This document shows, piece by piece, positions 5,526 through 33,342 of a stretch of DNA of 39,737 nucleotides. The position numbers and the translations under genes were made by a program. Under the pieces are notes generated by a model. The model saw only the letters and a list, made by a program, of their open reading frames with translations, did not search any database and was not told the DNA's origin. The DNA is from a virus. Lineage: Duplodnaviria; Caudoviricetes. The DNA lies in IMG/VR virus record IMGVR_UViG_3300012041_000042, positions 1-39,737 of that record. One strand, given 5' to 3'. Positions within the stretch are counted from its first letter, which is position 1. Every line of letters begins with the position of its first letter.

Positions 5526-6785
5526 ATGAATATCGCGGCACTCGAGCGAGACCTCGAGAAAAAGCAATCAGAGGCCCGGGCCCTATTTGAGAAAACCGCC
5601 AAGCAAGCCGACGCGGAAGACCGGGAATTCACCGCCGAAGAGCGCGCGGCCGTCGAGACACTCTTGGCCGAGGCCAAGACGATCAAAACCAAGCTCGATC
5701 GGCTGAAGGCGGACGCGTCGATGCGCGATCAGATCGATCAACTCCTCGGGGACGAGCGGTCGCGTGCGTCGGCATCCGATCCGTCACGCGGCCGCCGGTC
5801 GGGCATCCGCGTCTCGCTCGGGCAGCTCTTCGTCGACTCCGATGTCTACAAAGCATTCCGGAATCAAACCAAAGCCGTGCGCGGCTCGCGGTGGTCGACC
5901 GGTGTGGTCGAGCTGCAGAGCGAGCTCCTCGATTCCGACACCGGCTCACCAGGGTCCGGTGGTGATCTGATCGTCCCGGACTATCGCCCGGGCATTCTGC
6001 CGCTGTTGTTCCGCCGGCTCACCGTCGCGGACTTGATCGCACCCGGCACGACCGACTCGAACGCGATCATCTACATGCGGGAAACGGCGTTTACGAACAA
6101 CGCCGATACGGTCGCCGAAGGTGCGGTGAAACCGGAATCCGGGTTGCGCTTCGACCAGGAGACCGATCGCGTGTACAAGATCGCGCACTGGCTCCCGGTC
6201 ACCGAAGAGATGCTCGAGGACGTACCGGCGCTGCGGTCGTACATCGACGCCCGGCTGCGCCTGGGCGTGCAGCTCGCGGAAGAGGACAAGCTGCTGAACG
6301 GCGCCGCGTCGCCGGCCGAGCTCACGGGGATCCTGCACCGCGTCGGGCTTCGGCCTCCGGTCTCTGGTGGCTCGGGGGGGGCCGCGAACGCCGATGCGAT
6401 CTTCCAGCAGATGATGGGCATCTTCAACGATGCCTTCGTGATGCCCGATGGCATCGTCATGAATCCGCTCAACTGGCAGACGATCCAGCTCATGAAGGAC
6501 AGCAGCGGCGCGTACATGGGTGGCGGGCCGTTCAATACGCCGCCGGTGCCGCGGCTCTGGGGCCAGCCCGTGGTGCCCACGCCGGCGATCGTGGCGGGGA
6601 CCGCGCTGGTTGGCGCGTTTCGATCGGCGGCGCAGATCTTCCGCAAGGGCGGGATCCGCGTCGAGGCATCGAACAGTCACGATGACTACTTCATCCGCAA
6701 CTTGGTCGCGATTCGCGCCGAGGAGCGGCTCGCGCTCGCGGTCTACCGGCCGGGTGCCTTCGGCACCGTGACCGGGCTCGACTAA
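5526..6785 (+). CDS. major capsid protein, HK97 fold with N-terminal delta (scaffold) domain
   Basis: Coiled-coil N-terminus, 'GGDLIVP', 'VAEGAVKPES', 'KIAHWLPVTEEMLED', 'VAIRAEERL..YRPGAF'; GAGGA RBS. Confidence 0.95.
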   Translation: MNIAALERDLEKKQSEARALFEKTAKQADAEDREFTAEERAAVETLLAEAKTIKTKLDRLKADASMRDQIDQLLGDERSRASASDPSRGRRSGIRVSLGQLFVDSDVYKAFRNQTKAVRGSRWSTGVVELQSELLDSDTGSPGSGGDLIVPDYRPGILPLLFRRLTVADLIAPGTTDSNAIIYMRETAFTNNADTVAEGAVKPESGLRFDQETDRVYKIAHWLPVTEEMLEDVPALRSYIDARLRLGVQLAEEDKLLNGAASPAELTGILHRVGLRPPVSGGSGGAANADAIFQQMMGIFNDAFVMPDGIVMNPLNWQTIQLMKDSSGAYMGGGPFNTPPVPRLWGQPVVPTPAIVAGTALVGAFRSAAQIFRKGGIRVEASNSHDDYFIRNLVAIRAEERLALAVYRPGAFGTVTGLD

Positions 6786-25928: not shown

Positions 25929-26369
25929 CTACTTCCCGATGCGGAATGTCTTGCTGGCGAACCAGCCGCCCCGCATCGGGGACACCTGCACGCCACGCGA
26001 CACCTGCTTCGGAAGGGCCAGCAACACGGCCCCGCCGACCATCGCGCCCACGCCACCCCACATCAGGCCGGGCCGCTCGAAACTGACGGTGCCGTCCGCT
26101 TCGTAGGTGTCCGACCCGAATCGGCTCGTCGACATGCAGATCGTGTCTGTCTTCTTGCCGTAGCCGGTGGGATCGTCGTAGGTGAACCTGTGCGTGGTAT
26201 ATCCCGCGCGGCATCGCGCGTCGTGATAGTCGAACGACGCGGCCATCATGCCTGCCCCGCCGGCGATCGCCAGCCATCCGGCGACCCGCTTCCCGTCCGC
26301 TGCCGCCGTGCGCGGCACCATCCCGATCATCAGCGCCACGGCCACAATTCCCGCTGTCTTACCTTTCAC
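25929..26369 (-). CDS. exported/membrane protein (moron-like)
   Basis: GTG after AGGAG; signal peptide ending AAA-D, two further hydrophobic segments, a Cys pair. Confidence 0.7.
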   Translation of the reverse strand: MKGKTAGIVAVALMIGMVPRTAAADGKRVAGWLAIAGGAGMMAASFDYHDARCRAGYTTHRFTYDDPTGYGKKTDTICMSTSRFGSDTYEADGTVSFERPGLMWGGVGAMVGGAVLLALPKQVSRGVQVSPMRGGWFASKTFRIGK

Positions 26370-26905
26370 TGTCTGCTCCTGTGGTGGTTGGTTGGTGGTT
26401 GTAGTGCGGCAGCGCACGGGAGCTGTTTCAACGCGTCCGCCAGGCGGGTGAGCGTGAACGTGTCGGTGACGGTTTCGCCATCACCATCCGACACGCGGAA
26501 CGTGATGGTCTTCGCGGTCACGGCCTTCTCGGTGAAGGCCCTCACTGAGCGTATCGGCAGGAACGCGGCTTTGTGATTCGCGGCGATGTCCCACCACCCC
26601 ATCGTCGCCAGCTCGTCAGGCCAGCGGTGATCGACACGAATGGTGTTCGCTCTATCGCCGCTGAGGTACCGGCCGAACAGCAAGCCGACGTTCAACCCAT
26701 CGGGCATGCACATCCAGGCGAGAGATGATGTCCTGCTTTCTCCGAGCGTGAGCGCGGTGCTGCGGTCGGCATCAGTCATCGCGTCTAGCTTCTTCCTGAC
26801 CATGAAACTCCCGAACTTCAGATCCCCCTCGGCCGATGCGCCGACCGCCATCACCGCCACCGCTCCGATGGCTACTACGTACTGTCTCACTCTCACGGAC
26901 GCCAA
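26366..26905 (-). CDS. secreted protein (moron-like)
   Basis: TTG after GGAAGG; signal peptide ending ASA-E; 'LDAMTD...L...C', 'FTL..LADAL..L.C'. Confidence 0.7.
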   Translation of the reverse strand: MASVRVRQYVVAIGAVAVMAVGASAEGDLKFGSFMVRKKLDAMTDADRSTALTLGESRTSSLAWMCMPDGLNVGLLFGRYLSGDRANTIRVDHRWPDELATMGWWDIAANHKAAFLPIRSVRAFTEKAVTAKTITFRVSDGDGETVTDTFTLTRLADALKQLPCAAALQPPTNHHRSRQ

Positions 26906-27045
26906 CCTTCCATCTTTGCTTTGCTACGCGTCGCCGGTCGGCCGCCCTTCGCGCCGTTCACCTTGACGGCGGCGGTCTTGGCCTTGGACTTCGCACGACC
27001 GCCGAGGCGCCCGAGCGCAACGGCAGCGGGGTTCTTTTTCTTCAC
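26893..27045 (-). CDS. small basic protein with KNPAAVALGRLGG...NGAKGGRP (50 aa, not in the ORF track)
   Basis: GTG-started ORF read manually; its stop overlaps the next gene start; very Lys/Arg/Gly-rich. Confidence 0.7.
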   Translation of the reverse strand: MKKKNPAAVALGRLGGRAKSKAKTAAVKVNGAKGGRPATRSKAKMEGWRP

Positions 27046-27074: not shown

Positions 27075-27136
27075 GTGTCGTTGCGCGAGCGCAAATGCCC
27101 GCTCGAGAACGTGCAGTTTGGAAGTGCAATTTCGGC

Positions 27137-27718
27137 CTACGCCGGCTTCGCAGTCGCCATGGCGGCGGCTCGTGCACACCAGCGTCGACAGTGCGTGGCC
27201 CGCCAGGGTGCCGACTGCCGGCGCGGCGTCAGCGCCGGCATCGGCCCGCCGCAGTGGGCGCACGTCGCGGCCTGCTGGACCAAGGCCACAGGGCCGCGCA
27301 CGACAAACCCCTTCGGCGTCAACCGGAAGAGCGCTGGGCGGCGCCGCAGCTCCGTCAGGATCACCGCATCAATCCGGCGCGGCGTCTTCTGCTTCACGAA
27401 CCGCGCGATGTGTGCCTTTAACCCCGCGAGGTCGAGCGGGCCGTGCGCCCGCAATGCCTTTTCGATCCGTTGCCACAGGAATGCTGGACTCGTGGTGGCA
27501 TCCGTCTTCTGGTCCAGGCCGTGCCGGTGCCTGCCCAGTTCGAGCATCCGTGCCTCGTAGACCGCCTCGGCGAGTGCCCTCGATTCCTTCTTGCGCTGAG
27601 CAGTGGTGATGCCGACGAGGATGTCGGTCCGCTCTTTCTTCTTCGTCAATTCGAGATACATCCACCAGAACTTGCTATTGTCTTTCGCAAACACGCCCAC
27701 GTAATGCTCTCCTTTCAT
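27137..27718 (-). CDS. protein with an integrase-N-terminus-like domain and C-terminal Cys4 (Zn) motif
   Basis: WWMYLELTKKKERTDILVG matches integrase WYLYLEPIGKKEKTDILYG; CAHC...CRRWC; GAGG RBS. Confidence 0.75.
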   Translation of the reverse strand: MKGEHYVGVFAKDNSKFWWMYLELTKKKERTDILVGITTAQRKKESRALAEAVYEARMLELGRHRHGLDQKTDATTSPAFLWQRIEKALRAHGPLDLAGLKAHIARFVKQKTPRRIDAVILTELRRRPALFRLTPKGFVVRGPVALVQQAATCAHCGGPMPALTPRRQSAPWRATHCRRWCARAAAMATAKPA

Positions 27719-27770
27719 GGGCGCGTTGCGCGCGCCACCTCGCCCGGTACACGCCTCGAGTTGTTCGTCT

Positions 27771-28064
27771 CATTCCCCCGCTGTTCCTCCAGCAGAGTAT
27801 GGGGAACCCGGGGGGAATGGAAGTGTTGTTTTTCATTGTTTTTCGTTGTTTAGGCCGACGGCCCGGGCGTCCGGCTCATCGGATGGAAATCGCAGGATTG
27901 TTGAGGAATCGTGAGGAAACGGGGCTTTTTAATTGGTGGACGGCAGGAGGATCGAACTCCTGACCTCCGCATTGCGAAGGCGGCTGAAGCATACCATTTC
28001 CTCAAGGATTTCAGCCGACTCGCGTGCGCTGGGGAACCGGGGGGGAATGGAATCGCCGTTTTTC
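27771..28064. repeat. attP arm-type repeats
   Basis: TGGGGAACC(C/G)GGGGGGAATGGAA-N5-GTTTTTC at 27800-27834 and 28030-28064; degenerate inverted copy at 27771-27791. Confidence 0.8.
27934..27978 (-). mobile_element. attP: attP core: 3' half of tRNA-Ala(CGC)
   Basis: Minus strand reads TTCGCAA TGCGG AGGTC AGGAG TTCGATC CTCCT GCCGTCC A CCA: anticodon loop, T arm, U70/A73 Ala identity elements and CCA; no D arm; adjacent to int. Confidence 0.9.
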
Positions 28065-29312
28065 GCGTAGGACGCGCGCCGCCGGCCGGGTGGCCTTGCC
28101 CCTGCCCTGCCCCCTCTTCGCCGCTCTGGCGGCGTCATGGCGCGCCTGTTTGGCTTTCTGCGCGTTGTCCGTGTTGAGTCGATCGACGATCGCGTCGAGG
28201 TCGGCGGCCTTCACCAGGTGATACGTCTTCTCCAGCATGAACGTGTTCTTCCATCCGCCCATCTGCGCGACCGCTTTCAACACGCCCTCACCGCCCTGAT
28301 CCACCATGCGCGTGGCACCCGTGGTGCGGGTGGCCCAATGGAACACGTTCCCGCCGTGCTTCCGGCCCCACGGCACGCGCACCCGCGCGGCGGCGCGGCG
28401 CAGCATCGTCGCGAAGGCGCCGCGGCGATTGCGCTCGAGTTCGGCGCCGCGACGCTGGGGAAATAGATACTCGGTGGCGTTGGGCGGCAGCGCGTCGAGC
28501 GCCTTGATGATGACCTTCGAGAGTTTGATTTTGTAGGGCCTGTTGTTCTTGGGCTCCCGCACGCACAGCCATTGGTGGCCGGCGTCACCGTATTCCCGGT
28601 CGGTCTTCTTGAAGTCGAGAATGTTGGTGAGGCGCACGAGGCCTTCGTAGCCAATCAGGAAGATGGCGCGATCCCACGGCGTGTCGAGCGCGGCGAGCAG
28701 GCGCTCGCGTTCCGCGTCGCTCATCAGCCGGGGCACCGCGTCAACACAATCGAGAAACGGCGCGTCCTCGAGTGGCGACTTCTCGAGATAGGTCGGCACG
28801 GCTGCGACGAGCATCTGTTTGAGCACGGCCGTCTCGCGGTTAATCGTCACGGGTTTCGGCGGTGGCAGTGTGCGCGGCTTGCCGTTCGGTCCACCGAAGT
28901 GCGCGATCACGTAGGGCACGTTCGTCCGCCAGGTCTCATACTCCTTCAGCGTCTCGGTGGTGATCTCCGTGAGCACGGTGAGGTGCTTCGCAGCGCAGAA
29001 GCGCAGGATGTGTTTGAGAATGTCGCGCTCGCGCTCGGCGCCCCCGTGATGCACGACGACGTTGTCGCAGAACCACTGCGCGAAGGTGGTGATGGCGATC
29101 GCCGGCTTCGCTTTCGGCGTGCCGAGCCCGCGCTTCTGGTCGCCGAGCTCGTTCAGACGGACCAGGTAGTGCTGGCGCGCCTTCTCCTTCTGTGCCTTGC
29201 GCTCCTGCCGGGTCTTGCCGTACAGGATGTCGGTCTTCTCCTTCTTGCCGATCGGCTCGAGGTAGAGATACCAATGCTGGCGCCCTTCGTGTTCGCGGTT
29301 GAGTAGCCCCAC
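28011..29312 (-). CDS. int: tyrosine integrase
   Basis: 'TINRE..VLK', catalytic R (GLVR), K (EPKN), HWATR, GGW, Y (EKTY); likely GTG start at 29312 after GAAGGG; next to attP. Confidence 0.9.
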   Translation of the reverse strand: MGLLNREHEGRQHWYLYLEPIGKKEKTDILYGKTRQERKAQKEKARQHYLVRLNELGDQKRGLGTPKAKPAIAITTFAQWFCDNVVVHHGGAERERDILKHILRFCAAKHLTVLTEITTETLKEYETWRTNVPYVIAHFGGPNGKPRTLPPPKPVTINRETAVLKQMLVAAVPTYLEKSPLEDAPFLDCVDAVPRLMSDAERERLLAALDTPWDRAIFLIGYEGLVRLTNILDFKKTDREYGDAGHQWLCVREPKNNRPYKIKLSKVIIKALDALPPNATEYLFPQRRGAELERNRRGAFATMLRRAAARVRVPWGRKHGGNVFHWATRTTGATRMVDQGGEGVLKAVAQMGGWKNTFMLEKTYHLVKAADLDAIVDRLNTDNAQKAKQARHDAARAAKRGQGRGKATRPAARVLREKRRFHSPPVPQRTRVG

Positions 29313-33091: not shown

Positions 33092-33342
33092 CAAAACGGG
33101 CCTTTGCACTCGTCGCCCCGCCGCCGACGTCGTCCCGCGCCGTCGTGGAGTCACCCTACTTCGACTCGAAGGAAGCGATGGCCTACTTGCGGCTGAAGTA
33201 CCAACAGCAATTGCATCACCTGATCAAGGAGCACGGCCTGCCGACCTTGCGGTGCGGCGGACGGCTCCGTTTCGACAAACGCGAACTCGACGCCTGGCTG
33301 CGCGGCACCACCGCCCTCGAGCTGCGCCGCGCCGGAAAGTAG
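33088..33342 (+). CDS. excisionase-like HTH_17 DNA-binding protein
   Basis: 'YFDSKEAMAYLR', 'LPTLRCGGRLRFDKRELDAWL'. Confidence 0.82.
   Translation: MTKRAFALVAPPPTSSRAVVESPYFDSKEAMAYLRLKYQQQLHHLIKEHGLPTLRCGGRLRFDKRELDAWLRGTTALELRRAGK

Follow-up and report, generated by a model that had tools for sequence, protein, structure and literature searches.

An integrase-type N-terminal domain grafted onto a winged-helix protein beside a phage attP: a possible arm-site competitor with recurrent non-catalytic relatives

Why should a phage with its own tyrosine integrase carry, across the attachment site, a second gene that begins like an integrase and ends as something else? The question is raised by a 39.7-kb virus record, here called the window, in which an open reading frame at 27137–27718 (minus strand), confirmed in the ORF listing, had been described in an earlier note as a stand-alone paralogue of the integrase N-terminal domain. 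Translation probably begins at GTG 27700, since the ATG leads straight into a Shine-Dalgarno-like AAAGGAGAG (27707..27715, minus strand) lying 6 nt before the GTG; the gene (27137..27700, minus strand) would then encode 187 residues comprising an integrase N-domain, a winged helix and a four-cysteine, zinc-finger-like motif. The claimed alignment is real: BLASTP pairs residues 7–62 with the N-terminus of the phage’s own integrase at 23/56 identical positions (E 1e-9) and finds no second significant segment. The residual DNA identity once noted between the two genes also exists, in that AGGATGTCGGTC is present at 27618–27629 in one and at 29224–29235 in int, but the T-D-I-L motif that it encodes is widespread in the integrase family, and it is therefore no proof of duplication. 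No family core-binding (CB) or catalytic (CAT) profile matches the ORF, which bears out the description of the product as non-catalytic and, as it lacks both domains, places it outside the tyrosine integrases. The full protein has no Pfam match and hence no nuclease domain by Pfam, and neither Pfam nor a TIGR01764 search found a MerR-type HTH_17 domain in it. Judged by sequence comparison, the protein does not stand alone as an N-domain but is a fusion (hereafter the chimera), in which an integrase N-domain takes the place of the basic KGG-type N-terminus of its relatives. Two trivial origins were ruled out: a frameshifted integrase, since there is no CB or CAT match downstream in any frame, and an assembly artefact, since the whole stretch lies in single contigs of sequencing runs X1 and X2 and the junction recurs in run X3.

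The head of the chimera (residues 1–62; 27515..27700, minus strand) is an integrase-type, putative arm-binding domain. Against a family profile built from integrases only it scores 95 bits, compared with a median of 97 for the profile integrases and 58.6 for the phage’s own N-domain. It is homologous to the N-termini of integrases with CB and CAT domains (21/57 profile matches are full-length integrase-sized and start with this domain), and it retains 12 of 16 family-conserved positions, or 13 with the GTG start, in an intact reading frame. It departs from the family in carrying K in place of R6 (conserved in 95% of integrases) and N in place of D8 (82%), and in having one extra residue ahead of the helix. 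Identity to the own integrase is 39%, which ranks only 52 of 77 distinct integrase N-domains (best other 55%) and rules out a recent duplication of int, the origin implied when the gene was called a paralogue; the head more probably came by capture of the 5′ end of another integrase gene. In both free trees—quick trees on 66–67 columns—it sits among integrases, outside the main paralogue group, but the data (67 columns) are also compatible with its membership in that group (p-AU 0.53). The structure prediction suggested in the earlier note gives an AlphaFold2 model (pLDDT 85, pTM 0.66) with strands at residues 3–5, 11–16 and 21–28 and a helix at 34–59; the predicted fold thus has the three strands and one helix described for the arm-binding topology (PMC8138268). 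Fold searches with the head gave nothing significant. The best score was Z 5.0; the arm domain of the HPI integrase (3jtz) reached Z 3.9 with an rmsd of 2.8 over 50 residues, tied with unrelated rows, an AP2 repeat was among the top structural matches (Z 3.9), and the lambda N-domain had a Foldseek E of 3.3. Pfam, PHROG and PDB sequence searches with the head returned no match, and a search for longer homologues of residues 1–66 returned weak matches only.

The remainder of the protein is, as first described, unrelated to int: a winged helix at about residues 74–135 (27296..27481, minus strand), modelled with three helices and common to the KGG-form relatives, followed by a CxxC...CxxxC motif at residues 147–175 (27176..27262, minus strand) whose four cysteines (C147, C150, C171 and C175) are invariant in 4/4 aligned proteins. 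The motif probably binds zinc, and the whole C-terminal part is predicted to be a DNA-binding module. The middle domain has no Pfam match to HARE-HTH (PF05066), the Atlas structure row for which lies below its bar (TM 0.47/0.76), and its top Foldseek rows are mostly generic winged helices. Among 1284 candidates, three other homologues were found at E<=0.001; they align over the C-terminal two-thirds only (60–83% identity), none has the N-domain, and all three open with a basic KGG-type segment. The unconserved C-terminus that the earlier note named as a mark of a decaying integrase remnant is thus not seen, the C-terminus being conserved in relatives that have no integrase piece; dN/dS across the whole module is 0.24–0.32. 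The exact fusion of an integrase N-domain to this winged helix is a singleton, and single-protein scans of viral contigs, a search of the Atlas by features and one of cultured phages gave no result.

A KGG-form gene follows int and attP, as the chimera does in the window, in L002/L007, L003 and L005/L006, and a shorter KGG plus winged-helix version occurs in L108. The near-identical phage L006 has an int 93% identical in nucleotides and yet the KGG form in the slot, and BLASTN homology between the window and L006 ends at 27800 and picks up again at 27481. The lineage-specific segment between these points (27482..27799, minus strand) holds an inverted arm-like site, the leader, the N-domain codons and a linker, and replaces the KGG-type 5′ end of L006. 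In a contig of run X5 a match to the P′ arm is followed by 30 letters, 25/30 identical (counted by eye) to 27104–27133, just beyond the chimera’s stop, so that X5 seems to hold a relative with no gene in the slot. With X5, the KGG relatives and the chimera, the slot therefore has three states: empty, KGG-headed and integrase-headed. The chimera is intact in runs X1 and X2 (possible source samples), whereas run X3, an independent soil sample, contains both the KGG form and a 271-nt contig piece carrying the junction with 2 differences; the phage occurs in soil and groundwater. By these comparisons the graft is lineage-specific and optional, and the slot around attP holds many unrelated genes.

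The placement of the gene on the far side of attP is confirmed: along the minus strand the order is int, an arm repeat, a 45-bp core, a second arm repeat, an inverted third repeat and the chimera. The core (27934..27978, minus strand) corresponds to the 3′ half of tRNA-Ala(CGC). A search of 201 genomes with a pattern containing one ambiguous base matched 6, and 5/6 sites were full tRNAs; against the 3′ half of these tRNA-Ala(CGC) genes, which come from 5 genomes belonging to the same class as an Acidobacteriota MAG, the core is 44/45 identical, and the host is therefore probably from that class. The end of the core lies 234 nt before the chimera start on the same strand, and no terminator-like site was found between int and the chimera; Rfam, ARAGORN and promoter scans of the window gave no result. 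The arm-type tandem repeats lie inside the end of int on the P side (28032..28049, minus strand; −71 from the core start) and on the P′ side at 27802..27819 (minus strand; +159), and the extra, inverted one (27771..27787, plus strand) is 70 nt upstream of the chimera start and missing from L006. The tandem motif occurs these three times in the window, only at attP or in the chimera’s leader. Such repeats were called at a fixed distance from the core in 30/36 family loci (−68 to −73 and +129 to +171), the P-side arm standing at −68 to −73 in most relatives and spacing from the core start changing mostly in steps of ~11 bp as the P′ side shifts. A lysine three residues before a conserved threonine accompanies CCC arms in 18/19 loci, with one mixed, and all 6 pure CAC-arm loci have arginine there; the raw Fisher p is 3e-4 for a column chosen by eye, with 3 independent pairs giving p 0.5, and we treat this covariation as a lead. 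The window pairs a lysine head with CCC arms, which is also the commonest state. For most sampled family integrases (L036–L082) the integration target is this tRNA-Ala(CGC) 3′ half; a few use other tRNAs.

The phage’s own tyrosine integrase is an open frame of 433 aa at 28011..29312 (minus strand; PF00589 E 3.5e-8, phrog_1 E 2.6e-22). Its N-domain (29312–29133, minus strand), at 58.6 bits the lowest-scoring of the family set and left out of the profile, is strongly conserved relative to L006 (dN/dS 0.06). Directly downstream of the chimera lies a separate gene for a 50-aa KGG-type basic protein (26893..27045, minus strand); in L006 an unrelated gene begins at this position. The winged-helix protein of the phage has lost its KGG head while a free KGG gene adjoins it, and L032 has a similar KGG gene just ahead of its own paralogue. 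Farther downstream, 25929–26905 (minus strand) contains two genes with signal-peptide-like starts, one matching phrog_1848, which would lie near attL in the prophage and are possible lysogenic cargo. An excisionase-like HTH gene at 33157..33342 (plus strand; TIGR01764 E 7.4e-6, just under the cut-off, with a provisional 5′ end) is a candidate for the conventional directionality factor. HTH_17 genes like it stand right after int or attP in L023 (gene at 5711), L075, L076 and L082, and in those relatives are not beside the repressor region.

The expected recurrence of int–attP–paralogue triads was found. Viral contigs sampled by the catalytic domain gave 47 loci, of which 3 without 1 kb downstream were dropped, and 7/44 carry a second, non-catalytic N-domain gene near attP, either by itself or joined to T5orf172. 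The seed held 11 of the 44 loci, including 4 of the 7; a less biased count is 3/33 non-seed loci, all of them T5orf172 fusions, among them a near-copy of a seed locus. Three of the seven genes follow the core (+188, +188 and +196) and four precede it (−562 three times, and −609); no paralogue of known context is farther than about 610 nt from it. A two-sequence profile retrieved 57 representatives: besides the 21 of full integrase size, 2 were spurious, 11 had non-integrase C-termini (judged by eye, with genomic context known for P0016 only) and the rest were fragments or ambiguous. Of the 11, three end in HTH_17-like domains (Pfam E 3e-7 to 0.045) and one in T5orf172. Another search yielded stand-alone proteins in which the loop is shortened and a C-terminal helix of their own follows, as well as further T5orf172 fusions; the head is joined to T5orf172 in 6 proteins. 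The dN/dS check proposed earlier covered paralogue pairs from other loci, which give 0.31 (L009/L010) and 0.27 (L022/L009), with a Fisher p of about 0.0005 and a control integrase N-domain pair at 0.43, and on these alignments paralogues elsewhere in the family are under purifying selection. In the second tree 17/19 paralogues and one integrase fragment group at SH-aLRT 93. For the 5 paralogues with a cognate N-domain to compare, the own int ranks 14 to 68 of 77. Integrated copies with a paralogue at attL were not found in two samples of 401 genomes, where 2 and 9 genomes matched, all with full integrases except a 68-aa truncation (L093).

Several of these loci have features of their own. The conserved stand-alone family of 76–112 aa (L010 4001–4264; P0038, P0041, P0069, P0071 and P0074), in which the loop preceding the helix is shortened and the C-terminal helix is amphipathic, is a better experimental target than the window’s gene. 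N-domain::T5orf172 genes lie between int and core in L049 (2122–2814), L014 (5326–6018) and L032 (869–1405); in L049 arm repeats flank the gene (−692 and −72), and such genes may be homing nucleases aimed at shared attP arms. The post-core paralogue genes (L009 3973–4001; L010; L022) start 10–19 nt past the P′ arm with no clear Shine-Dalgarno sequence, an arrangement that suggests leaderless transcripts from a promoter overlapping the arm. In MAGs, integrases of the same family are found divergent from the core and directly downstream of a full tRNA (L094 1480–1675; L092 1232–1501). The integrase of L011 (4001–5089) is frameshifted after codon 72 relative to near-identical L014, through an assembly error or a real lesion.

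Our preferred reading, which we hold tentatively, is that the chimera is an optional accessory competitor that occupies the arm repeats of attP and damps site-specific recombination. The chimeric protein would have to be expressed, its N-domain would bind the tandem CATTCCC/GTTCCC-type repeats, and, having no core-binding or catalytic part, it would displace or crowd Int at P and P′ and so reduce recombination; binding to the extra arm-like site in its own leader might also provide feedback. The biochemistry is borrowed from other systems: arm binding and activity in trans are known for the lambda N-domain on its own (PMC9791396), and in KplE1 the integrase represses a promoter overlapping its att arm (PMC2951348). 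What is observed is the N-domain homology, the absence of CB and CAT domains, the location just beyond the P′ arm, the grafting of the head onto a gene already resident in the slot, and the recurrence of such N-domain genes in the family. A competitor is favoured by the confinement of the tandem motif to attP and the leader, the intact head with its predicted topology, the recurrence and selection of paralogues elsewhere, and the precedents from lambda and KplE1. Against it stand the singleton status of the fusion, the KGG-headed closest phage, the seemingly empty X5 slot, R6K, D8N and the insertion before the helix, as well as the head’s place outside the main paralogue group, the non-significant fold searches and the 3 independent pairs to which the residue-to-arm covariation comes down. 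A broader proposal, which we find quite doubtful, is that the family repeatedly evolves catalytically dead mini-integrases as a third natural controller besides Int and Xis; a prophage could then lock a shared site by occupying the arms of incoming relatives, given that tRNA-Ala(CGC) is the target of most relatives, that the arm motif is the same in them, and that the paralogues are closer to foreign integrases than to their own.

The chimera could instead be a neutral graft, a somewhat unlikely but credible account in which illegitimate recombination near attP set another integrase’s 5′ end before the resident winged-helix gene, the arm-site leader, ribosome-binding site and first 62 codons supplying only a start and any function residing in the C-terminal module. 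Being unique and optional, the fusion agrees with this, as do the substitutions at R6 and D8 and the traffic of unrelated genes through the slot; the replaced segment, moreover, begins right after the P′ arm and includes the inverted arm-like site. The MAG L094 has a full integrase gene with the same tRNA-Ala core and an inverted arm site 58 nt before its start, and a tRNA or core lies upstream of 4/60 family integrases, so donors of the graft’s layout exist. What weighs on the other side is that the junction is in frame exactly at the domain end, that the profile score is near the median, that the junction recurs in the independent soil run X3 (2 differences over 271 nt) and that selected N-domain genes occupy the same neighbourhood in other phages; none of this is decisive, as a recent graft from a working integrase would look intact too.

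We consider improbable a reading in the line of the earlier note, in which the gene encodes a directionality factor or a partner of the integrase and integration switches its expression by separating it from the int transcript and placing it under the promoter of the host tRNA. The geometry stands, since after integration the gene would follow the host tRNA at a distance of about 235 nt, on the same strand, with no terminator-like site found on the way from int, and three other paralogue genes are also post-core. The switch itself fares worse: the KGG form fills the same slot, 4/7 sampled paralogue genes precede the core and would remain with int, N-domain sequences are not tuned to the own Int, and the excisionase-like gene at 33157 makes a further directionality factor less needed. 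Much the same low credence goes to a shuffled DNA-binding module, an exchangeable targeting head like AP2 on a transcription regulator with targets unrelated to recombination. The same head is indeed fused to T5orf172 and to HTH_17-like domains, an AP2 repeat is among its structural matches, and T5orf172 genes swap DNA-binding domains and have been co-opted as repressors (PMC10448857); but within the window the arm-type motif is confined to attP and the chimera’s leader, and the paralogues keep close to the core, so that binding to the motif would touch recombination anyway.

If such genes are selected and have arisen more than once, the entry and exit of prophages would be subject to a further, directly testable level of control, and prophages may have a means of competing for a single tRNA site; even a neutral graft would illustrate how the 5′ ends of integrase genes are recycled at attP. 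The value lies mainly in the recurring class, the window’s gene being a weaker test case than the conserved stand-alone family. A search of mostly open-access literature found no description of arm-binding domains encoded naturally as separate genes beside attP; PMC5559632 describes partial second integrase genes, which are of another kind. In the literature searched, arm-binding domains are known as parts of integrases and the free lambda N-domain has been studied only as an engineered fragment, so that the parts are known and natural non-catalytic arm-binding genes beside attP are what appears to be new.

The chimera’s head resembles the arm-binding domains of tyrosine integrases (lambda Int 1–64, Tn916 and the HPI integrase 3jtz; PMC8138268) in being N-terminal in homologous integrases, in its predicted strands and helix, and in the core-flanking repeats at fixed distances; it differs in having no recombinase attached, in its fusion to a winged helix and zinc-finger-like motif, and in its weak structural match. 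Engineered lambda N64 in trans (PMC9791396) is also a separate N-domain, one that can bind arms and influence the catalytic domain, but those are laboratory constructs stimulating a modified C-terminal domain, whereas here a natural gene sits beside an intact integrase. In the autoregulation of KplE1 intS (PMC2951348), too, arm-type sites overlap the leader of a gene downstream of a tRNA and attL; there, however, the regulated gene is the full integrase, which here lies on the other side. Excisionases and other winged-helix directionality factors (Xis, HTH_17, AlpA-like) are small basic DNA-binding proteins encoded next to att, as the chimera is predicted to be, and some sibling N-domains are fused to HTH_17-like domains; the chimera has no HTH_17 match, its winged helix has three helices, and an excisionase-like gene stands elsewhere in the phage. 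HNH-AP2 and T5orf172 homing-endonuclease genes (PMC10448857) swap beta-sheet DNA-binding heads, as the sibling N-domain::T5orf172 genes recall, although the chimera carries no nuclease domain. Finally, the integration-dependent immunity of mycobacteriophage BPs (PMC4557955) shares the idea that integration alters a regulator, but in BPs attP lies inside the repressor gene, whereas here the core is outside the chimera and integration leaves its product unchanged.
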